Of a stretch of 64,000 nt of DNA, positions 5,627 through 59,334 are shown in pieces. Position numbers and translations under genes: made by a program. This DNA comes from Chiloscyllium plagiosum (lineage: Eukaryota), in the NCBI RefSeq assembly GCF_004010195.1, contig NC_057719.1:18497159-18561158 (forward strand), written 5' to 3'. Positions within the stretch are counted from its first letter, which is position 1. Every line of letters begins with the position of its first letter. The notes beneath the pieces were generated by a model. The model was not told the DNA's origin, searched no databases, and saw nothing but the letters and a program-made list of their open reading frames with translations.

Positions 5627-6499
5627 CAGAGTCATAGAATCATAGAGGTGTACAGCATGGAAACAGACCCTTCGGTCCAACCAGTCCATGCCGAACAGAT
5701 ATCCCAACCCAATCTAGTCCCACCTGCCAGCACCTGGCCCATATCCCTCCAAACCCTTCCTATTCATCTTCCCATCCAAATGCCTCTTAAATGTTGCAAT
5801 TGTACCAGCCTCCACCTCGTCCTCTGGCAGCTCATTCCATACACGTACCACCCTCTGAGTGAAAATGTTGCCCCTTAGCCTCTTTTATATCTTTCCCCTC
5901 TCACCCTAAACCTATGCCCTCTAGTTCTGGACTCCCCACCTCAGGGAATAGACCCTGTCTATTTACCCTATCCATGCCCCTCATAATTTTGTAAACCTCT
6001 ATATGGTCACCCCTCAGCCTCCGACGCTCCAGCGAAAACAGCCCCAGCCTGTTCAGTCTCTCCCTATAGCTCAGACCTTCCAACCCTGGCAACATCCCTG
6101 TAAATCTTTTCTGAACTCTTTCAAGTTTCACAACATCTTTCCAGTAGGAAGGAGACCAGAATTGCACTCAATATTCCAACTGTGGCCTAAACAATGTCCT
6201 GTACACCACAACATGACCTCCCAACTCCTGTACTCAATACTCTGACCAATAAAGGAAAGCATACCAAACTCCTTCTTCACTATCCTATCTACCTGCGACT
6301 CTACTTTCAAGGAGCTATGAACCTGCACTCCAAGGTCTCTTTGTTCAGCAATACTCCCTAGGACCTTACCATTAAGTGCATAAGTCCTGCTAAGATTTGC
6401 TTTCCCAAAATGCAGCACCTCGCATTTATCTGAATTAAACTCCATCTGCCAATTCTCAGCCCATTGGCCCATCTGGTCCAGATCCTTTTGTAATCTGAG
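5627..6499 (-). mobile_element. CR1 (HER1-like) LINE 3' fragment
   Basis: ORFs 6128-6472 and 5901-6167 give WQMEFNSDKCEVLHFG, QFWSP, LERVQKRFT and RRLRGD; tail shared with other copies. Confidence 0.95.
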
Positions 6500-7885: not shown

Positions 7886-8700
7886 TGAACAAAGAACAAA
7901 GAAAATTACAGCACAGGCACAGGCCCTTCGGCCCTCCAAGCCTGGGGCGATCCAGATCCTCTATCTAAACCTATCACTTTTTTTCTAAGGATCTGTATCC
8001 CTCTGCTCCCTGCCCATTCATGTATCTGTCTAGATACATCTTAAATGATGATATCGTGCCCACCCCTCCCGCCTCTGCTGGCAATGTCTTTCAGCCACCC
8101 ACCACCCTCTGCGTAAAAACCTTTCCACGTATATCTCCCTTAAACATTTTCCCTCTCACCTCGAACTCGTGACCTCTAGTAATTGAGTCCCCACTCTGGG
8201 AAAAAGCTCTTTGCTATCCACACTGTCTATACCCCTCATGATTTTGTAGACCTTAAGCAGTCACTCCTCAACCTCCGTCTTTCTAATTAAAATAATCCTA
8301 ATCTACTCAACCTCTCTACATAGATAGTGCCCTTCATACCAGGCAAAATCCTGGAGAACCTCCTCTGCACCCTCTCCAAAGCACCCATACCCTTTTGGTA
8401 ATATGGCCACCAGAATTGTACGCAGTATTCCAAATATGGCCAAACCAAAGTCCTAAACAACTGTCACATGACCTGCCAACTCTTGTACTCAATATCCTGT
8501 CCAATAAAGGAAAGCATGCTGTATGCCTTCTTGATGACTCTACTGACCTGCGTTACCACCTTCAGGATACAACGGACCTGAACACTCTGATCTCTCTGTA
8601 CATCCATTTTGCCCAGGGCTTTTCAATTTACCATTTAGTTCACTCCTGAATTGTATCTTCCAAAATGCATCACCTCACATTTGCCTGGCTTGAACTCCAT
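7886..8700 (-). mobile_element. CR1 LINE 3' fragment (gaacaaa-tail subfamily)
   Basis: Reverse complement contains TRGH, QFW.P and EVMHFG-type motifs; (gaacaaa)n tail, as at 55705. Confidence 0.9.
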
Positions 8701-9190
8701 AGGTGTGTACTGACTCTTTAAATAAAATCATAGTTTCATTCGAGATAAGTTTTAATAATTAACTGCAGCAGAGCAAGATGCACGGAGGTAAGAAGATGAT
8801 TTCAAAAAGGAAATTGAATAAGCATTTGGGGGAAATAAACTTTTAGCTCTATGGAAGTAGAAAGGGGAATTGGGACTGAACTGATTTCTCTAAAGAGAGA
8901 TGGAAAAGAATTGATATGTCAAATTATCATTTTTGCTTTATTACTGTGAGGACAGATACATTGGTTTGAGATTCAATCTTTGAGATTCAATTCAAGCTGA
9001 TTCCTACTTGTAAACTGAGTTGTAAGTGCAGCTTGAGGGTCAAGAATCATTGACAATCTTACACAGCCAAGTCGAAATGAGGCCTAAGTCATTTGAAGGA
9101 GAAAGTGAGGTCTGCAGATGCTGGAGATCAAAGTTGAAACTTTATTGCTGGAACAGCACAGCAGGTCAGGCAGCATCCAGGGAACAGGAG

Positions 9191-9226
9191 ATTCGACGTT
9201 TCGGGCACAGGCCCTTCTTCAGGAAT
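9191..9226 (-). ncRNA. Minimal type-I hammerhead ribozyme motif (PLE-type)
   Basis: rc = attc CTGAAGA a gggc ctgt gccc GAA ACGT C gaat; exact complement of 9585-9620. Confidence 0.8.
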
Positions 9227-9584
9227 GAGCAGAGAGTGTTCAGCAGGAGAAGATAAAAGGTAGGGAGGAGGGACTTGGAGGAGGGGAGTTGGAAATGTGA
9301 TAGGTGGAAAGAGGTCAAGGTGAGGGTGATAGGTCGGAGTAGGGTGGAGGCGGAGAGGTCAAGAAGAAGACTGCAGGTCAGGAAGGCGGTGCCGGGCTGG
9401 AAGGATCCTTCCAGCCCGGCACCGCCTTCCTGACCTGCAGTCTTCTTCTTGACCTCTCCGCCTCCACTCTACTCCGACCTATCACCCTCACCTTGACCTC
9501 TTTCCACCTATCACATTTCCAACTCCCCTCCTCCAAGTCCCTCCTCCCTACCTTTTATCTTCTCCTGCTGAACACTCTCTGCTC

Positions 9585-9620
9585 ATTCCTGAAGAAGGGC
9601 CTGTGCCCGAAACGTCGAAT
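9585..9620 (+). ncRNA. Minimal type-I hammerhead ribozyme motif (PLE-type)
   Basis: 4-bp stem I (attc/gaat), core CTGAAGA 9589-9595, stem II gggc/gccc, GAAA, palindromic ACGT stem III, GTC cleavage triplet ending at 9616. Confidence 0.8.
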
Positions 9621-10544
9621 CTCCTGTTCCCTGGATGCTGCCTGACCTGCTGTGCTGTTCCAGCAATAAAGTTTCAACTAAGTCATTTGAAGTCCTAGGA
9701 CATCACCATCGTACCTAAGTGTTGATGGCACCAATTCAATTGGAATCATGCAAGAGCTGAAAAGCAATCATTGTGTTGTGCAAAGACAGGACTTTGAAGT
9801 CTTATAAGATAATTTTCTAATACTAAGATAAGTCATAATTTTGGGGGAAGTTGGGGAAGGGGAGGAATCCAAGGTGAGGATAGGCCTAAAATTTCTTTCA
9901 AGTGCCTGGACCAACAAATATTGCTCCATCTGACTCAAATGAAAATCATGAAGAACCATATAAATTTGCTTTGCTGAATAGTCTGGGATCCATCACTGCC
10001 TAACCTACCAGGATGCACTTGACCATCAGTATGAATTGTGTGCTCTGGATGTCAAGATGGCCTTGGAGACCAAATGTCATGAGCTCTTGAATACTAATGA
10101 GGCTTTCATGTGCCTGCAAGCCCAGAAGTTAAAATAACAGCCCGTAGGACCAATGGGGAGGTCAATACCCAGATTATATTGTATGTGATTCGAATTCTCA
10201 TTAGGTAGGGGCAGCTGTGTTGGGAGGGCAGAGTGGTGGGAATTAAAACAAATGCCATTTAGCTGTACAATGTTATAAATGTTAATGCCTCTGTAGTCCA
10301 AAATGGAGCCAACTAGGGGAACTGGATATCAATACGTTCATTATCTGTGACTCAACACTGGGCAGTGCATCCTCTAAGTTATACACTTTGGTCTTAAGAG
10401 CTATTACAATTATAGTATGCTTCAAATCTGTTCTGTTGCTCATTTGGATCATTGTTCTTAGATTAACTCCATTTACCCACTATATTTGCATTTCCCTTAA
10501 TATTCCTGCCTAACAACAAACAAATTAAACAGTGCTTGGAAATT

Positions 10545-12965: not shown

Positions 12966-13497
12966 CAGTAATATATCCACTATTATATGACACCTGTTAA
13001 ATAATAATTAATTGGCATCAGGTTGAGTGTGAAACATAGTTAGTTGACAATCTGGGACAAGCATATTAATGGTGAATAAATAATGTAAAGACCTTTTTTA
13101 TTTTTCTGTACTTTTGATCATGGATTGAAATGGAAATAAAGGAGGGTTTTTTGTTAAAAAAAATTTTGAGGGATGCTGCATTTTGTGATGCAAGTAATTA
13201 GACACTCATTGTAAATGTTGTTTACACAGCTGTCTATTCAACCATAGTTGAAGTGTCGTTTGCACAGGAGGGGTGTCTACAAAAAGAGATCCAGCTGATA
13301 ACAAGCAGTGATTAGTTACTGCTGACAAAGGCCTTCTGACTGCCAACAATTATCTGACTCCAAGTTAGGTAGCCGGGGGTATGAACAAGGTGGTGAGATG
13401 CCATCAGATCTCTTCAGGCTCTGGAGTTGTCTCTATTCTCTTCAGTAAGAAAAAGACTTTAAGCCTGAAGAAAAGCAAGGCATTTTTCTTTCAGTAG

Positions 13498-13617
13498 AGC
13501 TTTTGCCTGAAACGTCGATTTTCCTGCTCCTCGGATGCTGCCTGACCTGCTGTGCTTTTCCAGCACTACTCTAATCCAGACTCGGGTTTCCAGCATCTGC
13601 AGTCCTCGTTTTTACCT
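13498..13617 (+). mobile_element. 120-bp solo Penelope 3' end (family A variant), truncated inside the hammerhead
   Basis: Begins gcttttgcctGAAACGTC and ends ccagcatctgcagtcctcgtttttacct. Flanked by the 16-bp direct repeat atttttctttcagtag (13482-13497, 13618-13633). Confidence 0.9.
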
Positions 13618-16600
13618 ATTTTTCTTTCAGTAGTTGTGAGTTTCAATTAATAAGCCTGAGACTTCTTTAAGTTTGAATCAGTCATCCTGTGCCTCTTGCA
13701 AGCCAGTGAAAACATCCAGTGAAGGAAGCTCGATAAGCAGCATTGGTATTACAACAAGAATCATCTCAGCAAATCATGTGAACAGGGACGACTGGACTAC
13801 TTTCCCATTCTTTCTTTTTGCCCAAAACATCCATTTTTTTTCCCTCTATTTCCCTCTGTATATGCGAATGCGGAGGATTTATAAGGCTGTTAGAGGTTTA
13901 ACCAGTAGAGTTGTATGTTAACAGTATATAATTGTTTACCTGTGGTTAGAGTCTATTTGCTTGTCATAAGTAATCATTTTTTGTAAGGTGCAATCTTATG
14001 AAGTACAAAAGCCTTCTCTGTGCTTCCTGTTAACCTGGATCTGACAGACAAGTAAATTCTGCATTTTTTTCCAAATATTTAACTTTTGCGAAACTCCAGG
14101 AATAGCGGGGCTTGGTTTTCAGTGTTCTACCTGAGTGAGGTAACAATACGCATGACAGGAAATGGAAACTGGTAATTTACAATAACTCCAGAATAAATTG
14201 CATTCCAAACTAGGCAACTTCCATTCTAAACTTCCATTTGTGCCTACTCATGATAGAAGCACAAATTAAACATCAGTAAATTAGAAAATTAATAAGAGGG
14301 TATGTTGGAAAGTAGAAGGTTGTAGTAGGCTTAGTTAATGGAAATTTACATGCAGTTTTAACAGGTAGCACTGGAAATCTGTGCACTCAGAAGGCTACCA
14401 TGAACCAGCAAGTCAGAAAATCCTCGTCACAAAGTAATTCTTATCTCCAAACCATATAGTCATTGCTGAGAATTACGCTACATGATTCTGGTAAACTACT
14501 GAACATAAACCAGACTTGTACACTTCGCACACAGAATATAAAAGTGATAATGGACTTACATGGTCAGGCCTGCTGCATCACACATGAATACAAAGTTTAT
14601 CTACAATGTCAGCTGGCTATTCCTGATTGGAAGACTGCCTCCCACCACATGTACAGGATATAATTCAGATGTTCATTATTGAAAATAATACAAATGCAAC
14701 ATAATTTTGTATCTCAACTTCACAGAATATATAATCTATGAACTGCTACAACATATTTTCTGAAATTATCTGCTATCAATCTTATTATGGCAATTAAAAA
14801 GTTAACTCTTACTTATGCATTAAAAGATATAAAGACTACTTTACATGAAATTTCACTGTTCTTAATATAATAAATAAGAATATCAGGTACCTTTCAGTTA
14901 CTACAAGGCAATAATGCGGTGTGACAATGTGGAACTTGAATGTTACAGCAAGGACATTGTGGGTTGCAGTTTATCAAATTAACTGTACCCCGTGATTGGG
15001 GTGATGTCTTACAATTCATTGAGTGGCATCCAGTAACCTCATTGTAATTGCTCGCAGGTATGCATTGTCTCCTAAACAATACTTCCTGTCTGTATTACAG
15101 TGACACCAGGAGATAAATAATTAGAGAGGGCGGGGGGATGGGAAGTTAGATGAGACAGAATATATTGCAGTAAGATAGGACCATAAAATAAATTAAAGAT
15201 TACAAACTCCATTGAAACTAGCTGTTATTGAAATGATACAAAGAAATGGCAGCAAACTGCAGATCCATATGTAGAGTGAAGGAATAGAAATCAGGACCGA
15301 GCAGATTTAGGTGCCTACTTGTAAATAAAAGCAATGTAGAACGGTTGCTGATGAATCATTCAAGACCTTCTGTATTTACTGAGCTGTAATAGCATTCATC
15401 ATTCTTGCTGGAGTCAAGCATGTTGAGTAGCCTTTCATCTCCCTTTGAATGAACACTAATACCCTCTCCTTCCACCAGCTTCTCCATCGAGCAGATTTCC
15501 ACTTAATCAAACTAACGGCACCATTGTCCGACACAAATGAGTGCGAAAGAAAACCACACAGACTCAAGTCTTTTCGTTACTACTATCCCCCCCACCCCCC
15601 TTCTTCTTCTTCATCATCATCTCCCCTTAATTGTTTTCACCTCTGAGGGATTAGTTTGGCCAGAGAGAGAGACGTCTCCAGCTCTGGGCCTTTTTGACAT
15701 GTATTGCGAGGCTGCAAGTGAGCAAGCAGGGGCTGAGTTCTGACAAATTTGCATCTCTTTGAATGTGACGCTTGAGAAGCCGAGCCGTTAGATTAAATTT
15801 TGCCTGCTGGAAAATGAGCAAGCCGCTATCGTAGGTCTACTGGGAAGATCTTTATTCAGATTCTTGTTAGACTTGTTTATCAAGCTGACAGACTAGTCTT
15901 CTATGAGATAAAGGGCTTCTCCATCACTGGCCCTGACAGTGGTAAGACATGCAGGGAAATGAAAGAAGCAGGGAAAATATTATTAATAGATGCTGAGTTG
16001 ATTTTCTTCTATGGCACGTCAAGAAGGAGCTGAGGCTTGATTGCAGCCTATGAAGTTCTGTCCAAAAAGAAGCTATTTTTCATTAAGTGATAGAAGGTCT
16101 TTCATGTTCTTGCTGAGTAGCTGAGATAAGTAATGCAGTCCTTTTTTTTAAAGCCCACTGATTTCCTATCAGTAAAGTACTGAAAAGGTGGGACACATCT
16201 TTCCTTCTCCAAGCCGCGGTAACCCCTTTGCCAATAATTTATTTGCTCATTCCAGGTCAGTTTTGTATATTCAAAAAAAAAGCAACCTGCTATTTTGCTC
16301 ATCTCTCAGTCTATGCAGGCTGATTTCAAAGTCAGACTGTCTGTAAATACATTACTGAGATAAAATGTTGGTAGCAAGTATAAGAAAAATTATTTAATAA
16401 ATTTCAGAGAGAAATATAAACAGCGGACAATGTTCCTTTACTCATCTCAGTCAGAGAAAGAAAGGTTTGAATACTCACTGAAGATTAATGCATCATTACT
16501 GGATATGTACCAGTACTGCGTGTAATTTTAATCAAAATATGCTGGGGTTATAATATCAGTTTTGTTCCAGTGCTGGTCTTAAGTTTGAATTACAGGGCAT

Positions 16601-25500: not shown

Positions 25501-25677
25501 CATTCTGGATTAGTGGTGTTGGAAAAGCACAGCAGTTCAGGCAGCATCCGAGGAGCAATAAAATCGACATTTCGGGCAAAAGCCCCTCATCAGGAATACA
25601 GCCAGAGAGCCTGTTTCCTGGAACAAATTCCCACTTCTGGAATATCACAGAATTAATCAGTGTCCCTTGCACCCGTG
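25501..25677 (-). mobile_element. Penelope-derived arm (25503-25597) plus about 80 nt of unassigned sequence
   Basis: rc hammerhead ctgatgaggggcttttgcccgaaatgtcg. The block is flanked by ccatcttacaa (25490-25500, 25678-25688). Confidence 0.75.
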
Positions 25678-27625: not shown

Positions 27626-27769
27626 TCAACTGGTTAAGCTGGGCCTGTGACCTTTCTGAAAATGTGTTGCTGGAAAAGCGCAGCAGATCAGGCAGCATCC
27701 AAGGAGCAGGAGAATCAACGTTTCGGGCATGAGCCCTTCTTCAGGAATGAGGAAAGTCCGATTTTCCTC

Positions 27770-27805
27770 ATTCCTGAAGAAGGGCTCATGCCCGAAACGT
27801 CGATT
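27770..27805 (+). ncRNA. Minimal hammerhead ribozyme motif, copy 1 of the tandem pair
   Basis: CTGAAGA 27774-27780, gggc-tcat-gccc, GAAACGTC ending at 27801. Confidence 0.75.
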
Positions 27806-27975
27806 TTCCTGCTCCTTGGATGCTGCCTGATCTGCTGCGCTTTTCCAGCAACACATTTTCAGCTCTGATCTCCAGCATCTGCAGTCCTCACTTTCTCCTC
27901 GAAGATTTTAACCTACTGCGAATCCTCTTGCAAGAATGCCTTCCTTGAAGAAGCTATCTTCCTCCCCCTTTCCTC

Positions 27976-28011
27976 ATTCCTGAAGAAGGGCTCATGCCCG
28001 AAACGTCGATT
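27976..28011 (+). ncRNA. Minimal hammerhead ribozyme motif, copy 2 of the tandem pair
   Basis: CTGAAGA 27980-27986, gggc-tcat-gccc, GAAACGTC ending at 28007. Confidence 0.75.
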
Positions 28012-29170
28012 CTCCTGCTCCTTGGATGCTGCCTGACCTGCTGCGCTTTTCCAGCAACACATTTTCAGCTCTGATCTCCAGCATCTGCAATCCTCACTTT
28101 CTCCTGTGACCTTTCTACTTATAACAAAATGGGTTGAGGAGAGATTCACTCCAGTGCTTAAGCGTATGATGTTTGGATAGGATTGCAAAAGAAGTGCCTT
28201 TCTCATTACCTGATTACACAAGGTGTAGGAGACACGCATTTGATGTTTCAGCCAAAAACAAATACAAGGAGGATGTGAGGGAAAATATTTTTATACAGTG
28301 AGCAGGAGCTGGAATTCACTATTTGTGAAAGTGAGGGCAATCAGTTATCTCAAAGGAAAATAGGATGGGCACTAAATGTGCAAAACAACATGAAGGGTGC
28401 AAGAAAATGAGGCAGACTGGATAACTCTACAGAGAACAGATCAATAGAGCAACTGGGATATTCTGCAATGACTCTCGGGGCTAACGTTTTTACCATTCTT
28501 CAGGTCAGTGACTCACTTCCGGTGAACAGGGAATGGGAATTAAGATTGAAGGTAGGAAGCTTGAAAGCTAAGCGGAGATGGTATAATTAGGGAGAAGTAC
28601 TTGGCTGCCATGCAAAGTAAGTAACTGGGAGGAGACTTGTCAGAGGATGCTTCCCAGCAACGTTTTAAAGTCTTAAACAAAAATTCAGAATAAGAAAAGC
28701 AGCCAGGCCACCGCTGGGCAGGAGTTTGTAAATCTATCTACAGCTTGGGTGTTTGGCGGGACTCTTACCCTGGCAGGTCTACCAGGAGAGGCCTGCCAGG
28801 CGTCACACAGTTTATCTGCCTCCTTACTATGAAGGAAGTTGGCAGCTCCCAGAAAATCCAAATCAGCATCCTAAACTTCTATTTCTCAATTCAGGTTCTA
28901 AATGATTGCCTGCTTCCATTTTGGGCAGGATGTGGATGTAATGCAGTCTTCCTGAGTCCTGAATCCTTCTCTTCCAAAATATCCAGCACAGGGATTGGAG
29001 GCCTACTACTGAAATGCAAGCCAGCATCAGTAACTACGGGATAAACCCTACATTCTATTCCTTTCCCAGCTGCAAAGGGCTTCATAAGGTCAGCCTTCTG
29101 TCTCTACCATTTGATGATCAATCTCCTGAACAGTATTGTAAGTAACTCAGAAGAAAACTCTTACAAACAA

Positions 29171-30129
29171 TAGAGTCATAGAGTCATAGAGATGTACAGC
29201 ATGGAAACAGACCCTTCGGTCCAACCCGTCCATGCTGACCAGATATCCCAACCCAATCTAGTCCCACCTGCCAGCACCCGGCCCATATCCCTCCAAACCC
29301 TTCCATAATCATATACCCATCCAAATGCCTCTTAAATGTTGCAACTGTACCAGCCTCCACCACATCCTCTGGCAGCTCATTCCATACATGTACCACCCTC
29401 TGTGTGAAAAAGTTGCCCCTGAGGTCACTTTTATATCTTTCCCCTCTCACCCTAAACCTATGCCCTCTAGATCTGGACTCCCCGACCCCAGGGAAAAGAC
29501 TTTGTCTATTTATCCTATCCATGCCCCTCATAATTTTGTAAACCTCTATATGGTCACCCCTCAGCCTCTGACGCTCCAGGAAAACAGCCCCAGCCTGTTC
29601 AGCCTCTCTCCGTAGCTCAGATCCTCCAACTCTGGCAACATCGTTGTAAATCTTTTCTGAACCCTTTCAAGTTTCACAACATCTTTCCGATAGGAAGGAG
29701 ACCACAATTGCATGCAATATTCCAACAGTGTCCTAACCAATGTCCTGTATAGCCGCAACATGACCTCCCAACCCCTCTACACAATACTCTGATCAACAAA
29801 CAAAAGCATACCAAACGCCTTCTTCACTATCCTATCTACCTGCAAATCCACTTTCAAGGAGCTATGAACCTGCACTCCAAGGTTTCTTTGTTCAGCAACA
29901 CTCCCTAGGAACTTACCACTCCCTAAGTCCTGCTAAGATTTGCTTTCCCAACATGCAGCACCTCGCATTTATATGAATTAAACTCCATCTGCCACTTCTC
30001 AGTCCATTGGCCCATCTGATCAAGATCCTGTTGTAATCTGAGGTAACCCTCTTCTCTGTCCACTACACCTCCAATTTTGGCGTCATCTGCAAACTTACTA
30101 ACTTACTTACCTCTTATGCTCGCATCCAA
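29171..30129 (-). mobile_element. CR1 (HER1-like) LINE 3' fragment
   Basis: rc contains KFADD (about 30080-30095), LERVQKRFT, RGHRFRV and WNELP; (tagagtca)n tail. Confidence 0.95.
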
Positions 30130-36326: not shown

Positions 36327-36497
36327 GTTAAAAATCACAACACTAGGTTACAGTCCAACAGGATTATCAACTAGTTACCTGATGAAGGAGCAGCACTCTG
36401 AAAGCTAGTGCCTCCAAATAAACCTGTTGGACTATAATCTGGTGTTGTGTGATTTTTAACTTCGGCCACCCCAGTCCAACATCAGCACCTCCACATC
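36327..36497 (+). mobile_element. Hammerhead-bearing palindromic short element (family B)
   Basis: Short inverted arm + sense arm with hammerhead + tail (ccccagtccaaca..gcacctccacatca). Direct repeat aaggtggaacatg / aaggtggaagatg (36315-36327, 36498-36510). Confidence 0.85.
36376..36410 (+). ncRNA. Minimal hammerhead ribozyme motif (AGCT stem III variant)
   Basis: tac CTGATGA (36379-36385) aggagc agc actct GAA AGCT A gtg; stem II weakened by apparent CpG decay. Confidence 0.65.
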
Positions 36498-37309
36498 AAG
36501 GTGGAAGATGACAGCGACATGGCGTATGGGGTTAAACTGAATCACAAGTTTCCTTTCAGAAAAAAGAGCCAATTGTTAGTCAATCTCCACACAGAAGGTA
36601 GCAGTTCGACCTAAGATGAAACAAAAAGAATAACTACTTTTTGTTTCATTCTCCCCCATACTTCAAAGCCATTAACCAGACCTATATATCTCCTCTGGGT
36701 TTATCATTAAATGATGCTTTCAAGTGAATATTTGTGCTATGCAACACTTGAAGGTAGAGATGGGTGTTTTGCCAAGGCTTCCTAAGGTAGAGAAGCCATA
36801 CTAAATTACCTATAAAAGCAAGATATCATGATGGTATGTTGTCTTTCAATTTCAAACAAAGCAAAACCTGCTGGAAGGTGAGCCTTGTGATTCCTGAATA
36901 CAGTGTATGGATCCTAAATTGGATTTTAATTTCTCTGTCGATGAAGGTTTTCTTTTGTGCGTTGAACATTACTTGAGAACAACTGAAGAAAGGACAGTCA
37001 TTTGCAGTTTTCTGATTTAATCTGCATTTAAGCAGAATCCCTACAGCCACTGTTGGTTAATAAGTTTTAAGTGGGTGGAAAGATAAAATTTGCTAGCAAC
37101 AGGGAAGGGAGCTGTCAGGTTTCCTGATCCCACAGCAAAAAAAAAGTATTAATGAGTAAAGCTCCCTGCTGCTGTTATAGAACATGCAATTTCAGTGTCA
37201 GCCACAACTTATTGGATAGCTTCCTGCCTCCAAGTTGGATGTTGCGCATTCACATTTCATTCTTGAACACAAAATCAGTCTTGGTTTTCATTTGTTGTAG
37301 TACTGAGAG

Positions 37310-37545: not shown

Positions 37546-37827
37546 ACTGCATAAGTCTTTATTTCCTTCTTTCCCTCACTCACTCACTCTCTTTTTCTCT
37601 CTCTCTCTCTATCCTTTGTTATTTCTTTCTTCCTCCTCATGTCAATGTTAAGTGCTTCTGCAGGTATTTCTAGCCTCAACTGTTTCTAAGGCCTTGTAAT
37701 TAAGACTCACAGGCTGTTAATGGGTATTGGCAAACAGAAGATCCAGAATAGATTTGGACTCGAGGTGGGGTGTTGAAGCTATTGAAACAGTGCCTGATGC
37801 TGCTGTGACTTTGGAATTGCTAACCAG

Positions 37828-38730
37828 TCATAGTTTCATAGAGTTGCACATCATGCAAACAGATCCTTCAGTTCAACTCATCCATGCCAGTCCAGATATC
37901 CTAAATTAATCTGGTCCTTCTAATGCCTTCCTATTCATGTACACATCCAGATGCCTGTTAAATTGTGTGGCTGTACCAGCCTCCACCACTTCCTCTGGCA
38001 CACATGCACCACCCTCTGTGAGGAAAAGTCACCCCTTCGGTCCCTTTCTCACCTTAAACCAATGCCCTCCAGTTTTGAACTTCCCTGCCATGGGAAAAAG
38101 AGCTAACTATTCACTCTATCTATGACCCTCATGATTATATAAATATCTGTAATGGTCACCCCTCAGCCTCTGATGCTCCAGGAAAAATAGCCCAAGACTA
38201 TTTAACTTCTCCTTACAGCTCAAACACTCCAACCCTGGCAACATCATGGTAAGTCCTTTCTGAACCCTGTCAAGTTTCACAACATCCTTCCCATAACAGG
38301 AAGACTAGAATTGCACACAATAATCCAAAAATGGTCAAACCAATGTTCTGTACAGCTGGAACATGACATCCCAACTCCTATACTCAATGTATTGACCAAT
38401 AAAGGTGAGTGTGCCAAACCCCTTCTTCACTACCATGTCTACCTGTGAATCCACATTCAAGGAACCGTGAACCTACGCCCCAAGATCGCTTTGTTCAGCA
38501 GCACTCCCAGGCCCCGACATTTAAGCGTGTAAGCCCTGATCTGAATTGCCTTAACAAAATGCAATACCTCACATTTATCTAAACTAAACTCCATCTGCCC
38601 ATTGGCCCATCTAATCGAGGTCCCATTGTACTCTGAGATAACCTTCTTCACTGTTCACCAGACCACCTATTTTGGTGTCATCTGCAAACGTACTAAACAT
38701 TCCTCCTATATTCACATCCAAATCATTTAC
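37828..38730 (-). mobile_element. CR1 LINE 3' fragment
   Basis: rc gives FADDTK (about 38672-38690) and QMEFSLDKCEVLHF; typical tail. Confidence 0.9.
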
Positions 38731-38916: not shown

Positions 38917-40432
38917 GGGGCCTCTTGCTGAGATATTTCTGTCATCGATAGTTACAGGTGAGGTGCGGGAAGACTGGAGGTTGGCAAACGTGGTGCCACT
39001 GTTTAAGAAGGGCGGTAAAGACAAGCCAGAGAACTATAGACTGGTGAGCCTGACCTCGGTGGTGGGCAAGTTGTTGGAGGGAATCCTGAGGGACAGGATG
39101 CACATGTATTTGGAAAGGCAAGACTGATTTGGGATAGTCAACATGACTTTGTACATGGGAAATCATGTCTCACAAACTTGATTGAGTTTTTTGAAGAAGT
39201 AACAAAGAAGATTGATGAGGGCAGAGCAGTAGATGTGATCTATATGGACTTCAGTAAGGCGTTCGACAAGGTTCCCCATGGGAGACTGATTAGCAAGGTT
39301 AGATCTCATGGAATACAGGGAGAACTAGCTATTTGGATACATATCTGGCTCAAAGGTAGAAGACAGAGGGTGGTGGTGGAAGGTTGTATTTCAGAGCGGA
39401 GGCCTGTAACCAGTGGAGTGCCGCAAGGATCGGTACTGGGCCCTCTACTTTTAGTCATTTACATAAATGATTTGGATGCGAGCATAAAAGGCACAAATAG
39501 TAAGTTTGCAGATGACGCCAAAATTGGAGGTGTAGTGGACAGCGAAGGTGGTTACCTCAGATTACAATAGGATCTGGACCAGATGGGCCAATGGGCTGAG
39601 AAGTGGCAGATGGAGTTGAATTCAGATAAATACGAGGTGCTGCATTTTGGGAAAGCAAACCTTAGCAGTACTTATACACTTAATGGTAAGGTCTTCGGGA
39701 GTGTTGCTAAACAAAGAGACCTTGGAGTGCAGGTTCATAGCTCCTTGAAAGTGGAGTCGCAGGTAGATAGGATAGTGAGGAAGGCATTTGGTATGCTTTC
39801 CCTTATTGGTCAGAGTATTAAGTACAGGAGTTGGGAGGTCATGTTGCGGCTGTACAGGACATTGGTTAGGCCACTGTTGGAATATTGTGTGCAATTCTGG
39901 TCTCCTTCCTATTGGAAAGACGTTGTGAAACTTGAAAGTGTTCAGAAAAGATTTACAAGGATGTTGCCAGGGTTGGAGGATTTGAGCTATAAGGAGAGGC
40001 TGAACAGGCTGGGGCTGCTTTCCCTGGAGCATCGGAGGCTGAGGGGTGACCTTATAGAGGTTTACAAAATTATGAGGGGCATGGATAGGATAAATAGACA
40101 AAGTCTTTTCCCTGGGATCGGGGAATCCAGAACTGAAGGGCATAGGTTTAGGGTGAGAGGGGAAAGATATAAAAGAGACCTATGGGGCAATGTTTTCATG
40201 CAGAGGGTGATATGTGTATGGAATGAGCTGCCAGAGGATGTGGTGGAGGCTGGTACAATTGCAACATTTAAGAGGCATTTGGATAGGTATATGAATAGGA
40301 AGGGTTTGGAGGAATATGGGCCGGGTGCTGGCAGGTGGGACTAGATTGGGTTGGGATATCTAGTCGGCATGGACAGGTTGGACCGAAGGGTCTGTTTCCA
40401 TGCTGTACATCTTTATGACTCTATGACTCTAC
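38917..40432 (+). mobile_element. CR1 (HER1-like) LINE, 1.5-kb 5'-truncated copy with a nearly complete RT pseudogene
   Basis: ORFs 38861-39127, 39178-39570 and 39583-40344 give [29 protein letters not shown] and FADD. One frameshift (about 39120) and one in-frame TAG (39568-39570); (atgactct)n tail. Confidence 0.97.
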
Positions 40433-41690: not shown

Positions 41691-41740
41691 TTTTGAGGAG
41701 GGCAAAGAAACTTTGTAAATGCAAGTCTTTCTTTCATTCT

Positions 41741-41945
41741 AGCTGAAAATGTGTTGCTGGAAAAGCGCAGCAGGTCAGGCAGCATCCAAGGAACGGGAGA
41801 ATCGACATTTCGGGCATAAGCCCTTCTTCAGGAATGCCCGAAATGTCGATTCTCCTGTTCCTTGGATGCTGCCTGACCTGCTGTGCTTTTCCAGCAACAC
41901 ATTTTCAGTTCTGATCTCCAGCATCTGCAGTCCTCACTTTCTCCT
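41741..41945. mobile_element. Penelope-derived palindromic insertion (family A)
   Basis: Antisense arm with a full hammerhead (about 41800-41835), sense arm starting in stem II, 35-nt tail. Flanked by ctttctttcattcta (41727-41741, 41944-41958). Confidence 0.92.
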
Positions 41946-42339
41946 TTCTTTCATTCTAACATTATTTATTCCCCCATGTACGTCTTACTGGTTGAATGAT
42001 GTCTATTCACTAGCTTTCTCCCTGCTGGTAGATCTTCTTCAATGGAACCTGGCAAAAGCCCTTTGAAATCAACTCACTGAGAGCAGCCATCCCCAGGCTC
42101 CAGGCCACTGTTTAAGTGGTGTCATAGTTAACTTGAACCAGTGATCACGATTTGAGATTTTTATTTCCCTCACCTTTATATTTTGTTTCTCTCAGGACTT
42201 AGAAACCAATTCTAGGATTATTTATATACTTTAAGTCAATATCTAAATGGTCCCCAGTGTCACCAAACAATGATATTTACAAAAATAACCTACACGTCCA
42301 CCCCTGTCCTTTTAAAAGTGACACAACTAATAAAGAGTC

Positions 42340-48910: not shown

Positions 48911-49075
48911 GTTAAAAATCATCCAACACCAGGTTATAGTCCAACAGGTTTAATTGGAAGCACACTAGCTTTCGGAGCAACGCTCCAATTAAACCTGTTG
49001 GACTATAACCTGGTGTTGTGTGATTTTTAACTTTGTACACCCCAGTCCAACACCGGCATCTCCAAATCATGTCCA
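48911..49075. mobile_element. Family-B palindromic short element inserted in Rex1
   Basis: 48-bp arms 48911-48958 / 48984-49031. The loop holds an antisense half-hammerhead (rc gctccGAAAGCTAgtg). 39-nt tail; direct repeat ctacacatt (48902-48910, 49076-49084). Confidence 0.9.
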
Positions 49076-49240
49076 CTACACATTAACAGCATAGACGTGG
49101 AATGAGTGCAGAGTATCAAGCCCCTGGGAGTGGTCATCCACAATAAGCTTTCTTGGATTCTTCATGTGGATGCACTGGTTACAAAGGCCCAACAATGTCT
49201 CTTCTTCCTCAGGCAGCTGAGGAAATTTGGCATGACAGCG

Positions 49241-51396
49241 AATACCCTTGTCAACTTTTATAGGTGCACCATCGAGAGCATTCTGTCTGGATGTACCAGT
49301 ACCTGGTATGGCAACTGTACCATTCAAGATTGGAGACAGTTACAGAGAGTGTTGAACTCGGCCTGGACAATCACAAAGGCCAACCTACCATCTATAGAAT
49401 CCATCTACTAGGCCCGCTGTCAAGGAAAGGCCGCCAGCATTCTCAAAGATCCAACCCACCCTGGCAATGTTTTTCGACAACCTCTACAATCGGGGAGATG
49501 GTACAGAAGCCTGAACACACGCACCAGCCGGTTTCGAAGCAGTTTCTACCCTACTGTTGTTAGAAAAATGAATAGACTCACAAACTCTTAGCATTTATCT
49601 GTACCTGTGTTTTTGTTTTTGCTGCTGTTTACCTATTATTTACTTATCTATGCTACTTAACTATGTGATCGGCAGCACGGTGGCACAGTGGTTAGCACTG
49701 CTGACTCACAGCGCCAGAGACCCGGGTTCAATTGCTGCCTCAGGCGACTGACTGTGTGGAATTTGCACGTTGTCCCCGTGTCTGCGTGGGTTTCCTCCGG
49801 GTGCTCCGGTTTCCTCCCACAGTCCAAAAACCTGCAGGTTAGGTGAATTGGCCATGCTAAATTGCCCGTAGTGTTAGGTGAAGGGGTAAATGGAGGGGAA
49901 TGGGTCTGGGTGGGTTGCGCTCCAGCGGATCGGTGTGGACTTGTTGGGCCAAAGGGCCTGTTTCCACACTATAAGTAATCTAATCTAATCTGCCTGTGTT
50001 GCTCGCAAGACAAAGCTTTTTATGGTGCCTCGGGACATGTGACAATAAATTCAATTCAAATTCAAATTCAATGCAAGTTATGGTTGTTGAAAAGACTGGA
50101 TAGTGATAGTGAATAAAGAGGGTATTGATGTAATGGACTTACTCTCTCTTCTGCCTCCCCTATTCTAAACCTAGTTTCAACATACAATTCTGCTCCTTTC
50201 CACCTGTCAGAACATAATCGTAAATGCAGATGTTTGCAACTAGAAATTCATTACCTACAAACATGCATCATATCTCGAATATTTACATTACATATGTGCC
50301 TGTCATGAGAAACACCTTGGGAATCAAATGCAAATGTTTTTTACTTGATTGTTAATTATTTCACATCCTTCTCAATTTATAATCTTATATTCCTAATACT
50401 TTAGGTGCATTTTCCTTCCAGATTGGAATACAGCTGTGAAATTTATATTGACTAAAATGTAATTGAAATGTAATCAGCAAATACCCTTGCCAACTTTTAT
50501 AGGTGCGCCACTGAGAGCATTCTGTCGGGATGTATCACTATCTGGGTATGGCAACTGTACCATTCAAGATTGGAGATGATTACAGAGAGTGGTGAACTCA
50601 GCCTGGATAAGCACAAAGGCCAACGTGCCATCGATAGAATCCATCTACCAGGCCTGCTGTCAAGGAAAGGCTGCCAGTATTCTCAAAGATCCATCCCACC
50701 CTGGCAATGTTTTTCTATAACCTCTACCATCGGGGAGAAGGTACAGAAGCCTGAAGACATGCACCAGCCAGTTTCGAAACAGTTTCTACCCTACTGTTGT
50801 TAGAATACTGAATGGACTCTCAAACTCTTAGCATTTGCCTGTACCTGTATTTTTGTTTTTGCTGCTGTTTACCTATCATTTACTTGTCTATGCTACTTAA
50901 CTATGTGATCTGCCTGTATTGCTCGCAAGACAAAGCTTTTCACTGTGCCTTGGTACACGTGACAATAAATTCAATTCAAATTCAATGCAAGTTATGGTTG
51001 TTGAAAAGACTGGATAGTGATAATAAATAAGAGGATATTGATGTAATGGACTTACTCTCTCTTTTGCCTCCCCTATTCTAAACCTAGTTTCAACATACAA
51101 TTCTGCTCCTTTCCACCTGTCAGAACTTAATCATAAATGCAGATGTTTGCAACTAGAAATTCATCACCTACAAAGATGCATCATATCTCGAATATTTACA
51201 TTACATATGTGCCTGTCGTGAGAAACACTTTGGGAATCAAATGCAAATGTCGTTTTTTATTTGGTTGTTAATCATTTCACATCCATCTCAACTTATAATC
51301 TTATATTCCTAATACTTTAGGTGCATTTTCCTTCCAGATTGGAATACAGCTGTGAAATTTATATTGACTAAAATGTAATTGAAACGTAATCAGCAA
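49241..51396 (+). repeat. Tandem duplication (unit about 0.92 kb; copy 1 49241-50479 includes an HE1, copy 2 50480-51396)
   Basis: Both copies start aatacccttg.caacttttataggtg and end gtaatcagca. The unit holds the Rex1 3' end plus about 400 bp of flanking DNA. Confidence 0.95.
49671..49990 (+). mobile_element. HE1-type SINE
   Basis: Full head, core and (taatc)n tail; absent from the duplicate copy at about 50910. Confidence 0.95.
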
Positions 51397-52134: not shown

Positions 52135-53530
52135 AGTGCTAGCTCACATCAACTCCAGCCTCCATATTGCCTTGATCCTTTGCAATTTGCTTACTGGCCA
52201 AGCAGGTCCACAGCAGATGTCTTCTCTCTGGCCCCACACTCATCCTGGAACATTTGGACAACAAGGATACCTACGTTAGTATGTTACTTATTGACTACAG
52301 CTTCACCTTCAACACCATAATTTCAAACAAATATCTCCAAACTCCAGGACCCACGTCTCTGCTTCCCACTCTGTAACTGGATTTTCGACTTCTTGACCAA
52401 CAGACTGCAGTCAGTAAGGATAGGTGACAACACCTCCTCCACAATAATCCCCAACACTGATGCTCTTTAAGGCTGCACATTCAGCTCCCTACTATAGTCC
52501 TTATCTACACACACACACGCACACCAGTGTGGACAGATTTTGCTTCAACTCCATTTACAAGTTTGCTGACGACACCACCATTGTAGTTCGGATCTCAAAT
52601 CATGATGAAACAGAGTACAGGAAGGAGATAGAGTACTGAATGGCATGGTGTAAAGACAACAAATCTCTCAACCAACGTCAGTAAAACAGAGGATTTGGTC
52701 TTTGACTTCAGGAAGTGGAATAGAGGGCAATGCCTCATGGTGCAGAGGTGGAGATGGTCAAGAGTGTCAAGTTCCTGAGAGTGACAATCACCATCAATCT
52801 GTCCTGGTTCATTCACGTTGACAGTACAGTCAAGAAAGTACAGCAATGCTTCTACTTCCTCAGGAAGCTAAAGCAAATCGGCATGTCCATAAAATTCTTA
52901 CAAATTTTTATAGATGCACCATAGAGAACATCCTATATGATATATAAAGTTAGAAGTCACATGATGCCGGATTATAGCCCATCAGGTTTATATGAAAGCC
53001 CAAGCTTTTAGAGCACCACTCCTTCACCAGATGATCAGCCTATTAAAATGACTTCATCTGATGAAGAGGCTGCACTCTAAAAAGCTTGTGATTTTAAATA
53101 AACCTGTTGGACTATAACCTGATGTTGTGTGACTTCTGACTATGTCCACCCCCAGTCCAACATCGGCACCGCCATATCATATCTGATGCACCTCAGCATG
53201 GTATGACAACTGTTCTTCCCAAATCTGAAAGGAAGTACAGAGAGCTGTGAACACAGCCCAGTCCATCACACAAACCAACCTTCCATCCATTGACTCCATC
53301 TATACTTCCTGCTGCATCTAGAAAGCAACCAACATAATCAAAGGCCCCTCCCACCTTATTATACTCTCCTCCAACCTCTTCCATCAGGCAGAAGATATAA
53401 ATATTTGTGTACACATATGAACAGATTCAAGTACAGCTTCGTCCCCACTGTTATCTGACTTACAATGGACCTCTCAAATGTTAATCTTAATCTCTCTCTC
53501 TCTCTATGCACCTTCTTGGCAACTGTAACC
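52135..53530 (+). mobile_element. Older Rex1/Babar LINE fragment, interrupted
   Basis: [15 protein letters not shown] (about 52559-52580), VKFL.VTI..NLSW and YFLRKLK. Confidence 0.85.
52946..53180. mobile_element. Family-B palindromic element with two opposed hammerhead remnants
   Basis: Arms agttagaagtcaca... / ...tgtgacttctgact; antisense aagctttt..ccttcaccagatga and sense tcatCTGATGAag...aaAAGCTtgtg; tail ccccagtccaacatcggcacc. Confidence 0.85.
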
Positions 53531-53532
53531 TT

Positions 53533-53759
53533 GTTGAGAGTGTCATGTTGGAAAAGCACAGCAGGTCAGGCAGCATCCGAGGAGCAGGAGAATAGACGTT
53601 TCAGGCATAAGTCCTTCATCAGAAATGAATTTCTGATGAAGGGCTTATGCCTGAAACGTCGATTCCGCTGCTCCTCGGATGCTGCCTGACCTGCTGTGCT
53701 TTTCCAGCACCACACTCTCGACTGTGATCTTCAGCATTTGCAGTCCACCCTTTCTCCTA
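53533..53759. mobile_element. Penelope-derived palindromic insertion (family A) with two hammerhead motifs
   Basis: Arms 53533-53626 / 53629-53722 with a 2-nt spacer and a 37-nt tail. Direct repeat ctgtaaccttgt / ctgtaacattgt (53523-53534, 53761-53772). Confidence 0.92.
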
Positions 53760-54459
53760 GCTGTAACATTGTATCCTGTACTCTGTTCTGTGACCCTATT
53801 GTACAGTATGAACACGTAAGACAATGCTTTTCACTGTACCTCAACGTGAATGTGGGACTTCGGCTCCATGAGGAATATATGGCGGTCACCTACTGATAAA
53901 GCATGGACAGATGCAACTGTGACATATATAGTGGTGAGGATGAGGTCAAGTAGATTAGTCCTTCTTTTGGTTCCTTCAGCACCTGCACAAACTCAGTCTA
54001 GGTGATAATTTTCAGGATATTTCCTTTCACGTATTTGACCTGATACCATGAACTGGAAACAATTCTGCACTCCCTGCAAGGGGTTTGTATAGTCTACAAA
54101 ACGTTCACCTCAGTACAGGTTCAGATCTAAAGAAAGAGACATTGATGTGGAAGGACTACCAGAGACAATAGCAAGCAAATTGACTTTCAGTTCACCTAGT
54201 TTACTCAGCTTCAAGACTAACAATACACCATTGTAAATTGTTTCTCATTCAGAAGGTGTTTGAGGCTGCATGCAAATGTTGTTCCATAGCAAAAACACAA
54301 GAATCTCATTTCAAGACCAGGTTAATGCTTTTCTTCAATACAGTGGCTCAGCATAAACTCGAGCATTCACCAAGTTTCCATTTTGTACTTCAAAGTAGAA
54401 AATAAAAGTAATCACATTCAAGTTTCAACTATAACAGCACAGCCCAGTTGAGCTTTTGG

Positions 54460-55347: not shown

Positions 55348-56875
55348 AAATGAGGAGGGTTGAGCTGTTCTGATAAAGTTTACCTCCTGAAGAAAGTTCA
55401 GAATATCAAAGCTGCCCATTAATTGAATCTTTGGTAGTTTGTCATTGGAGCTTCACCCTCACGATTTAACCCCTCGATGAGTTGTGATGAAAAACAAAGC
55501 GTTTCACCTATGACTCATTGTCTGATTCATCTTCCGACTGATTCAATGGTAAGTAGCAGTAAACATTCTCACAGAGAAATCCAAGAACCTTTGCTTCTCT
55601 ACATCACTATAGATTCCAACAATAATACATTTCACCCCCGTTACCATTCATTTCAGTATTTTGTGTGTCATTCTGAAGTATGTTCAACAGCGAATGTGTT
55701 ATAAAAAGAACAAAGAAAATTTACAGCCCAGGAACAGGCCCTTCAGCCCTCCAAGCTTGAGCCGATCCAAATCTACTGTCTAAACCAGTCGCCCAATTCC
55801 TAAGCATCTGTATCCCTCTGCTTCGCACCTACTCATGCATCTGTCCAGACGCACCTTAAATGAATTTACCGTGCCTGCCTCTATTACCTCTGCTGGCAAC
55901 GCTTTCCAGGCACCTATCACCCTCTGTGTAAAGGACTTTCCACGTGTATCCCCCTTAAACTTTTCACCTCTCACCTTGAACGCATGACCTCTCATTATTG
56001 AATCCCTCACCCTGGGAAAAAGCTTATCTCTATCCACCCTGTCTATGCCCTTCATGATTTTGTAAACCTCAATCAGGTCACCCCTCAATCTCCTTTTTTC
56101 TAATGAAAACAATCCTAACCTACTCAACCTCTCTTCGTAGCTAGCACCTTCCATACCAGGCAACATCCACGTAAATCTTCTCTACACCCTCTCCAAAGCG
56201 TCCACATCCTTTTGGCAATGTGGCAACCAGAACTGTACACAGTATTCTAAATGCTGCTGAACCAAAGTCTTGTATAATTTTAACATGACCTGCCAGCTCT
56301 TATACTCAATACCCCATCCGATGAAGGCAAACATACCATTATGCCTTCTTGACCACTCTTTCCACCTGTGCAGCCACCTTTACGGTACAATGGACCCGAA
56401 CTCTCAGATCTCTCTGCTCATCAACTTTTCCCAAGGCTCTTCCATTTACAGTATAGTTTGCTCTTGAATTGGACTTCCCAAAATGATCACCTCACATTTG
56501 CTCGAATTGAACTCAATCTGCCACTCCTCCGCCCAACTCTCCAGTCTATCTGTATTCTTTGACAGTCCCTATACGGTCTGCTGCTCCACCAATCTTCGTG
56601 TCATCTGCAAACTTACTGATTAGACCAACAGTGCCCTCTTCCAGATCATTTATGTATATCACAAACAACAGTGGCCCCAGCACTGACCCCTGTGGAACAC
56701 CACTGGTCACCTTTCTCCATTACGAGAAACTCCCTTCAACTACTACTCTCTGTCTCCTGTTGCTCAAACAGTTCTTTATCCACCTAGCGAGAACATCCTG
56801 CACACCATGTGACTTCACTTTCTCCATTAGTTTACCATGGGGAACCTTATCAAATGCCTTACTAAAGTACATGTA

Positions 56876-57493: not shown

Positions 57494-57830
57494 TATATGA
57501 TATCTACAACCCTTCCTTCATCTATCAACTTAGTCACTTACTCATAGAACTATATTAAGTTGCTAAGGCACGATCTCCTCCACACAAAACCATGTTGTCT
57601 ATTGCTGATAAGCCCATTCTTTTCCAAATATAAAAAGATTTTATTCCCCAGTACCTTCTCCAGCAACTTTCCCACCACTGCGTCAGGCTCAATGGTTTGT
57701 AGTTACCTAGAATCTCCCAACTACCCTTCTTGTACAGGGGGAAAGTGAGGACTGCAGATGCTGGAGATCAGAACTGAAAATGTGTTGCTGGAAAAGCGCA
57801 GCAGGTCAGGCAGCATCCAAGGAGCAGGAG

Positions 57831-57866
57831 AATCGACGTTTCGGGCATGAGCCCTTCTTCAGGAAT
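57831..57866 (-). ncRNA. Minimal hammerhead ribozyme motif in the PLE 3' UTR
   Basis: rc = attc CTGAAGA a gggc tcat gccc GAA ACGT C gatt, on the PLE sense strand. Confidence 0.8.
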
Positions 57867-59000
57867 GAGGAAAGTGTGCCAAGCAGGCCAAGATAAAAGT
57901 TAGGGAGGAGGGACTTGAGGGAGGGGCGCTGGAAATGCGATAGGTGGAAGGAGGTTAAGGTGAGGGTGATAAGGTGAGGGTGATAGTCCAGAGTGGGGGT
58001 GGAGGCGGAGAGGTCAGGAAGAAGATTGCAGGTTAGGAAGGTGGTGCTGAGTTCGAGGGTTGGGACTGAGACAAGGTGGGGGGAGGGGAACTGAGGAAAC
58101 TGGAGAAATCTGAGTTCATCCCTTGTGATTGGAGGTTTCCTCGGCGGAAGATAAGGCGCTCTTCCTCCAGCTGTCGTGTTGCTATGGTCTGGTGATGGAG
58201 GAGTCCAAGGACCTGCATGTCCTTGGTGGAATGTGAGGGGGAGTTGAAGTGTTGAGCCACGGGGTGGTTGGGTTGGTTGGTCTGGGTGTCCCAGAGGTGT
58301 TCTCTGAAACGTTCCGCAAGTAGGCGGCCTGTCTCCCCAATATAGAGGAGGCCACCTCGGGTGCAGCGAATGCAGTAAATTGTGTGTGTGGAGGTGCAGG
58401 TGAATTTGTGGCGGATATGGAAGGATCCTTTGGGGCCTTGGAGGGAAGTAAGGGGGGAGGTGTGGGCGTAAGTTTTGCATTTCTTGCGGTTGCAGGGGAA
58501 GGTGCCGGGAGTGGAGGTTGGGTTGGTGGGGGGTGTGGACCTGACGAGGGAGTCGCGGATGGAGTGGTCTTTTCGGAATGCTGATAGGGGAGGGGAGGGA
58601 AATATATCCCTGTTGGTGGGGTCCGTTTGGAAGTGGCGGAAATGACGACGGATTAGACGATGTATATGGAGGTTGGTGGGGTGGTAGGTGAGGACCAGTG
58701 GGGTTCTGTCCTGGTGGTGTTTGGAGGGGCGGGGCTCAAAGGCGGAGTTGCGGGAAGTGGAGGAGATGCGGTGGAGAGCATCGTTGATCAACTCTGGGGG
58801 GAAATTGCGGTCTTTGAAGAAGGAGGCCGTTTGGGCTGTTCGGTATTTGAACTGGTCCTCCTGGGAGCAGATACGGCGGAGATGAAGGAATTGGGAATAT
58901 GGGATGGCGTTTTTACAAGGGGCAGGGTGGGAGGAGGTGTAGTCTAGGTAGCTGTGGGAGTCGGTCAGTTTATAGTAAATGTCCGTGTTGATTCGGTTGC

Positions 59001-59334
59001 ATTACATTACATTACATTACAGTGTGGAAACTGGCCCTTCGGCCCAACAAGTCCACACCGACCCGCCGAAGCGTAACCCACCCATACCCCTACATTTACC
59101 CCTTACCTAACACTATGGGCAATTTAGCATGGCCAATTCATCTGACCTGCACATCTTTGGACTGTGGGAGGAAACCAGAGCACCCGGAGGAAACCCATGC
59201 AGACACGGGGAGAACGTGCAAACTCCACACAGTCAGTCACCTGAGGCGGGAATTGAACCCGGGTCTCTGGCGCTGTGAGGCAGCAGTGCTGACCACAGTG
59301 CCACCGTGCTGCCCACTGCCACCGTGCCGCCCAC
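59001..59334 (-). mobile_element. HE1-type SINE inserted in the PLE ORF
   Basis: Full HE1 with an (attac)n tail and a short duplicated head (gccaccgtgc.gccc twice). Confidence 0.95.

Follow-up and report, generated by a model that had tools for sequence, protein, structure and literature searches.

A near-perfect palindrome, probably of recent origin, made of two head-to-head Penelope-like element 3' ends in Chiloscyllium plagiosum

The stretch of DNA analyzed in the current study (64,000 nucleotides of contig NC_057719.1 of Chiloscyllium plagiosum, hereafter the window) contains an insert made of two arms of 274 nt each, which are joined head to head with a spacer of zero at the self-complementary hexamer GGATCC (table 1). 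The arms pair at 273 of 274 positions, the single mismatch being 9343 G opposite 9468 T, and an unpaired tail is found on the left side only. No ORF is present in the insert. The flanking 15-mer is present only twice in the window, at 9084 and 9678, and the match does not extend in either direction. In random draws within the window, an exact 15-mer flanked a 580-bp interval 8 times in 100,000, and an exact 13-mer was found flanking in 11 of 20,000 draws. The last two nucleotides of the left copy of the duplication (9097–9098) also fit the family sequence, as do the first two of the right copy; since overlaps of 1–3 nt arise by chance, these 2-nt overlaps of the element ends with the duplication were not counted as evidence.

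The original prediction had described spacer-less 274-bp arms centered on GGATCC with one mismatch, a 33-nt tail on one side only and a clean 15-bp target-site duplication, and all of this was borne out, the duplication being supported both by the exact 15-mer pair and by contigs resembling an empty site in all three DNA runs described below. The palindrome is real in the assembly, and probably also in the animal. An origin as a MITE or foldback DNA transposon was considered and rejected. Such elements have symmetric terminal inverted repeats, and their copies share one whole unit, whereas the two ends of the focal insert differ by the 33-nt tail, and its sibling insertions differ in center and length.

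Table 1. Positions of the focal insert, its parts and related insertions in the window.
Feature	Position	Strand	Basis or remarks
Left copy of target-site duplication	9084-9098	+	exact match to 9678-9692
One-sided PLE tail, 33 nt	9099-9131	-	sequence between the family's two 3' ends
Left arm, 5'-truncated PLE 3' end (3' UTR + pLTR)	9132-9405	- (element sense)	
Minimal type-I hammerhead motif, left arm	9226-9191	-	motif scan; mirror of right-arm motif
Inversion junction, self-complementary GGATCC common to both arms	9403-9408	no strand	
Right arm, same PLE 3' end without tail	9406-9679	+ (element sense)	
Minimal type-I hammerhead motif, right arm	9585-9620	+	motif scan, MFE fold
Right copy of target-site duplication	9678-9692	+	first 2 nt overlap right-arm end (9678-9679)
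Lone tailed copy	13493-13618		16-bp duplication
Lone tail-less copy	25513-25609		
Sibling B	27644-28116 (element 27657-28103)		tail-less inverted arm, 7-nt spacer, partial tandem, tail, 14-bp duplication
Sibling E	35052 to about 35182		old inverted pair, 49-nt tail arm, non-overlapping tail-less arm
Sibling C	41727-41958 (element 41741-41943)		inverted pair, 16-nt spacer, 15-bp duplication
Sibling D	53523-53772 (element 53533-53756)		older inverted pair, 2-nt spacer, ~12-bp duplication with one mismatch
Longer broken 5'-truncated copy, related subfamily, RT + GIY-YIG	57741 to ~60134	-	Pfam, tblastn

The left arm and tail of the focal insert are 83% identical to 57741–58047, which follows directly after the GIY-YIG ORF of the longer copy as its 3' end. 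This last ORF of the longer copy contains a GIY-YIG domain (Pfam, E 1.5e-5). Forty-three longer relatives of its protein were found, most of them with an RT domain (PF00078), and the nearest named relative, from Chiloscyllium punctatum, matched at 73% over 47% of the query. Residues 335–907 of a 909-aa relative (P0002) were collinear by tblastn in three pieces at 60125–58096, and the RT part of the longer copy was 83–88% identical to the shark protein P0022. RT together with a C-terminal GIY-YIG domain, the combination found in EN+ Penelope-like elements (PLEs), is thus present on the longer sibling copy and not on the ORF-less focal insert. The 83% identity to the 3' end of an RT and GIY-YIG copy bears out the predicted origin as a PLE 3' end.

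A CX2-5CxxC linker before GIY-YIG was found in 37 of 44 proteins scanned, and the decayed copy in the window keeps two of the three cysteines. As this linker is described as defining the Neptune and Nematis clades (PMC8557442), it may point to a Neptune or Nematis type for the focal family. Scans with the family motifs gave no matches in viral contigs and none in metagenome contigs.

The longer copy is interrupted near 58990–59317 by a SINE-like repeat, preceded by a short (CATTA)n run, and the same repeat family is found at 41359, 49671, 55006, 33047 and 20521. About 450 bp beyond the 5' end of the longer copy, 60584–60660 resembles the tail-less end of another PLE-like family. Most of the other long inverted repeats in the window are accounted for by CR1-like LINE 3' fragments, which lie in both orientations (5628–6499, 29171–30129, 37826–38729, 39040–40431 and 55705–56875), with an RT domain at 39040–39567. 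There is also a local duplication (49236–49673 with 50475–50913, and 49988–50480 with 50908–51396; 90–93%), one unit of which holds the SINE-like repeat, and a pair of 87-nt repeats at 36412–36498 and 48958–49069. Near 48958 lies an inverted repeat of about 35 nt with a 25-nt spacer, which has no match to the PLE family. No host exon was detected by Pfam in 140 ORFs (138 of 209 candidates and two LINE ORFs), a search by which short exons would be missed. Two of the 140 ORFs had Pfam matches, one to RT and one to ALKBH8_N (52724–52921, E 5e-7), and neither was taken as a host exon; the ALKBH8_N domain is often found on retroelement ends.

Each arm of the focal insert carries a minimal hammerhead motif. 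The motif of the right arm consists of a 4-bp stem I, a CUGANGA core, a 4-bp stem II and GAAA, with no real stem III, and the predicted cut lies after 9616. Stems I and II were present in the MFE fold of the isolated motif, a fold that was no better than those of shuffles (z = +0.6), and the motif scan found a hammerhead core with stem II at eight places in the window. Rfam gave no match at gathering score over the window, and no hammerhead match, and on the right arm one chance match only (E 9.3). The motif is like the metazoan PLE hammerheads described in PMC4209133 in its 4-bp stem I, the extra unpaired base before stem II and the lack of a real helix III, while its stem II is 4 bp long as against 7–8 bp described there for Schistosoma.

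According to the same source, the minimal hammerheads of metazoan PLEs are inactive as monomers, and the dimer model needs two of them on one strand (PMC4209133). The focal hammerheads lie on opposite strands and, unlike in that model, form no tandem dimer; with one sense copy on each strand, they probably do not act as a functional pair. A non-LTR retrozyme, described as a head-to-tail tandem hammerhead array (10.64898/2026.07.22.740005), was likewise rejected, since the focal copies are head to head. The hammerhead of the lizard element PAc is reported to cleave only with protein, and its cleavage was not needed for insertion (PMC11167929).

The predicted RNA fold of the whole insert has an energy of -619 kcal/mol (z = -52 against 20 shuffles), and a read-through RNA is predicted to fold into one long hairpin, a duplex of 272 bp in which the whole hammerhead is paired. 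A sequestered ribozyme, as had been proposed, agrees with this hairpin geometry. Sequestration probably matters little, because there is a single sense motif per strand and minimal motifs of this kind are reported to be inactive as monomers.

Nine insertions of the focal family were found in the window, and five of the nine are head-to-head inverted pairs with a one-sided tail. The same tail is present on family copies ending at 28103, 41943, 53756, 57741 and 3302. Each of the two family ends also occurs without inversion, in the lone tail-less copy and the lone tailed copy. Duplications were found in five of the seven insertions tested (15 bp for the focal insert, and 14, 15, 12 with one mismatch, and 16 bp). 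The seven were the five inverted pairs and the two lone copies, the other two of the nine being the longer copies; sibling E and the lone tail-less copy yielded no clear duplication.

Arm identity is 273/274 in the focal insert, 97/99 in sibling B, 73/75 in C and 86/94 in D. In B, C and D, private-looking variants are common to both arms, and both arms of C carry a C-to-T change in the core of the hammerhead. Compared with the tailed arm, the tail-less arm extends further upstream by 19 nt in C, by 2 nt in B and by 2 nt in D (the last judged by eye); in C, the 16-nt spacer is part of the tail-less arm, and there is a 3-nt overlap where the arms meet. This polarity signal comes mainly from C, which alone is strong, as B and D lean by 2 nt and E is old. 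Sibling E, in which the 49-nt tail arm and the tail-less arm do not overlap, resembles a classical L1 twin-priming inversion. In sibling B (27898–27975), past the tail of the first direct copy, about 60 nt in an open frame continue from the hammerhead region and then jump to the second pLTR piece. These 60 nt are likely the element's own downstream (5' ORF) sequence, an extension that would be expected from reverse transcription that begins at an internal position of the RNA. Within the sibling series, the focal insert has the longest arms and the highest perfection, and it is otherwise ordinary.

The left part of the locus (8700–9440, comprising the left flank, the left arm and 35 nt past the center) was compared with three DNA runs (X1 and X6 from organism A in separate studies, X9 from organism B) and one RNA run, four of 24 listed runs, which also include organism C and samples S2 and S3. 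In all three DNA runs, single-copy contigs match the left flank as far as 9098, beyond which they no longer follow the element. The X1 contig showed no differences over 399 nt of flank, followed by 3538 letters that do not fit the element; the contigs of X6 and X9 extend beyond 9098 by 156 and 1143 such letters, respectively. From this loss of fit, rather than from the letters beyond it, we infer that the contigs leaving at 9098 represent the empty site. A link from the contig end points that an empty site would give (13230 and 10835) was tried and dropped, as no telling feature lies there.

Neither the filled junction nor the filled center was seen among the 24 pieces listed of about 97,400, in contigs, which drop rare alleles. 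Family ends pile up at 9096–9098 in all three DNA runs (at least 542, at least 344 and at least 406 contigs). The flank variant 9067 C>G was present in X6 (organism A) and X9 (organism B) and absent from X1, so organism A is polymorphic in this flank. It is likely that the insertion is polymorphic or private, and it would therefore be very young. The empty-site-like contigs in three of three DNA runs support the proposal of a single recent retrotransposition event.

The shape of the insert is already known for PLEs, of which the focal copy is an unusually clean example. Typical PLE anatomy is described as including an adjacent inverted 5'-truncated copy and a tail of 30–40 bp, often at one end only (PMC8557442), and Penelope copies of Adineta as having an inverted pLTR, a 31-bp tail, duplications of 8–10 bp and palindromes at the inverted junction (PMC3846280). 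The focal insert has the marks of an EN+ PLE insertion, namely a truncated copy inverted head to head, a one-sided tail of 33 nt, a target-site duplication (with the empty site inferred) and a hammerhead motif in the pLTR; with the units described in these two sources it also shares the palindromic junction and, in sibling B, a partial tandem. It differs from the published units in consisting of two short equal stumps with no ORF and no spacer, and its 15-bp duplication is longer than the 8–10 bp of the Adineta examples (PMC3846280). The strangeness that the original prediction implied for the palindrome is thus not borne out, as the architecture has been published and the window contains four more inverted pairs.

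The position of the join bears on how the two arms came together. Two X6 contigs among those listed fit through 9408 and continue into element sequence homologous to 58050–58075, which shows that at least one subfamily carries GGATCC as part of the family sequence. Among the X1 contigs listed, four leave at 9406 with a variant, and the longer copy is without the hexamer; this different reading of the center in other family sequences counts against the join proposed below. A 12-letter look-alike near 58420 in the longer copy was considered as the target of a jump that made the center, and rejected; since the hexamer is present at the homologous position in family contigs, the resemblance is taken as coincidence. 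Purines make up 215 of the 310 letters of the cDNA strand, and two identical strands of this kind have eight complementary word pairs of at least 6 nt, of which three are self-palindromic. When only sequence beyond 9240 and words of at least 5 nt are considered, two complementary words remain, namely the self-palindromes at 9371 and 9403, and the focal join falls on the second of these. Since self-palindromes are the only complementary words there, a zero-spacer join is expected if two cDNAs pass the hammerhead and anneal.

On balance, we consider it somewhat more likely than not that reverse transcription was primed from each strand of a single staggered cut, the two cDNAs then likely being joined through the family's GGATCC. 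In the proposed sequence of events, the GIY-YIG nuclease would nick both strands 15 nt apart. By extension from PAc, the top-strand nick may prime at the outer start, which includes the tail, and the bottom-strand nick at an inner start 33 nt upstream. Both arms are indeed cDNA-sense outward from the target, and they end at the same place. The purine-rich cDNAs would pair at very few words, and annealing at a self-palindrome would give a palindrome with zero spacer; flaps would be trimmed and gaps filled, and the 15-nt overhang would become the duplication. The observations in favor of priming from both nicks are the five inverted pairs among nine insertions, the duplications in five of seven, the longer tail-less arm in the siblings, and the lone copies of each end. 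The product is most likely a non-coding, dead-on-arrival scar without function.

PAc, a Poseidon element of Anolis carolinensis, is reported to cut both strands of its target in vitro and to extend each of them, its tail corresponding to the stretch bounded by its two RT start sites (PMC11167929). The focal tail likewise lies between two 3' ends, and extension of both strands as in PAc would yield the focal anatomy. The two differ in that the focal family has a putative Neptune/Nematis-type linker and PAc is of the Poseidon type. Moreover, the start site in PAc is reported to be the same for both strands and not homologous to the cut DNA, so that one start per strand is not established in PAc. 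In the available text of that report, both-strand extension is not linked to inverted insertions (PMC11167929).

L1 twin priming is, by analogy, the closest worked-out counterpart of the focal mechanism. It is described as involving two nicks, one RNA, joining by microcomplementarity and a clean duplication, and an outer cDNA that overruns the inner primer gives an internal duplication (10.1101/2024.08.27.596794, PMC11702581). In L1, binding of the inner primer is a matter of chance and there is hardly any overlap between the two parts (10.1101/2024.08.27.596794, PMC11702581), whereas in the focal family the distance between the inner and the outer start is fixed at 33 nt, and the two parts overlap over the full length of the arm. 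The variants common to both arms in B, C and D count against twin priming to the extent that they fit one template or fold-back equally well; they fit one RNA used twice, a hybrid fold-back, or later conversion.

Fold-back synthesis, with a hybrid route included, is less favored than priming from both nicks, and we regard it as doubtful. The hybrid, which is itself unlikely, supposes that both nicks prime, that the inner-primed tail-less cDNA folds back and is copied, and that a short outer cDNA adds the tail and anneals. It predicts identical arms and spacers owned by the tail-less arm, as seen in B, C and D; the 3-nt overlap and 16-nt loop of sibling C would make a plausible hairpin, and the spacers cluster near zero (0, 2, 7, 16). 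For the focal insert, however, the hybrid requires a hairpin with a 2-bp stem and a 2-nt loop, or no loop at all, as against 6 bp for the annealing of two strands, and in the siblings B has five unassigned letters at the join and D has no overlap.

Simple fold-back, the route named in the original prediction, is improbable in our judgment. Here one tail-primed cDNA would fold at the center, copy itself and be joined to the opposite end of the target, stopping 33 nt before its own start. The identity of the arms (273/274) agrees with it, and self-priming has been proposed for inverted junctions of Penelope, Arkhipova et al. 2013 having read the palindromic junctions of Adineta in this way (PMC3846280). 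However, it requires the spacer to lie on the tail-bearing arm, and the 19 nt of sibling C are on the tail-less arm, with B, D and E leaning likewise. It also leaves the lone tail-less copy at 25513–25609 unexplained, and gives no reason for copying to stop at the family's second end. Simple fold-back is therefore not favored, both because the tail-less arm is the longer one in the siblings and because a zero-spacer center suits the annealing of two cDNAs better than a hairpin without a loop.

It is very improbable that the insertion was born asymmetric and perfected later, by cruciform resolution, spacer deletion or gene conversion. Repair of inverted repeats is a general process, and the older siblings have variants common to both arms. 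The insert nevertheless looks too young for such a history, being absent from the contigs of two samples of organism A; its center coincides with the family hexamer, and the older siblings retain their spacers.

We give little credence to an artefact, in which a fold-back chimeric read or a mis-join would have built the palindrome, even though the filled allele is in none of the pieces listed from the three DNA runs. A fold-back chimera would be expected to mirror the flank as well, and here the mirror stops at the family's second end, with unique DNA resuming after an exact 15-bp repeat of family-typical length. Four siblings of the same anatomy are present, and the arms differ at one base.

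The least credible reading, which we consider very improbable, is a hairpin locus kept as a source of endo-siRNA against the family or as an ADAR substrate: a read-through RNA would give a 272-bp duplex and siRNAs match inverted Penelope regions in transgenic Drosophila (PMC3681739), but a polymorphic insert would be too recent to show selection. The Drosophila loci are likewise long inverted repeats that give dsRNA if transcribed (PMC3681739), whereas the present one has a vertebrate host and is known from sequence. RNA depth was zero on the unique left flank (8700–9074) in 2% of one single-cell polyA run, a weak test since the animal may lack the insert, and on the arm the RNA run had only family-type reads. 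A>G places were listed in the DNA runs (6, 6 and 11) as in the RNA run (10), and therefore reflect paralogues.

The origin of tandem and inverted PLE structures has been called still undefined (PMC8557442), and the focal insert is a clean, young data point on this question, although the single locus matters little, being likely a functionless scar of a published shape. We tentatively propose that the two nicks prime a single RNA at two fixed positions separated by 33 nt, that the outer polymerase displaces the inner one, and that the twin cDNAs close at a shared self-complementary word. Among the papers listed for Penelope twin priming and for head-to-head palindromes, none stated such a rule for spacer polarity, which may nonetheless have been published. 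The rule for spacer polarity and join site rests on few copies here; spacer polarity and join positions, which are countable over thousands of shark copies, would separate twin priming from fold-back. If the proposal is true, one rule would account for inverted pseudo-LTRs, the one-sided tail, identical arms, the longer tail-less arm and zero-spacer centers. How long perfect palindromes persist in the germ line of a vertebrate could also be tested on a polymorphic example of this kind, and, if the same proposal is true, the family would steadily supply a shark genome with new perfect palindromes that are polymorphic.
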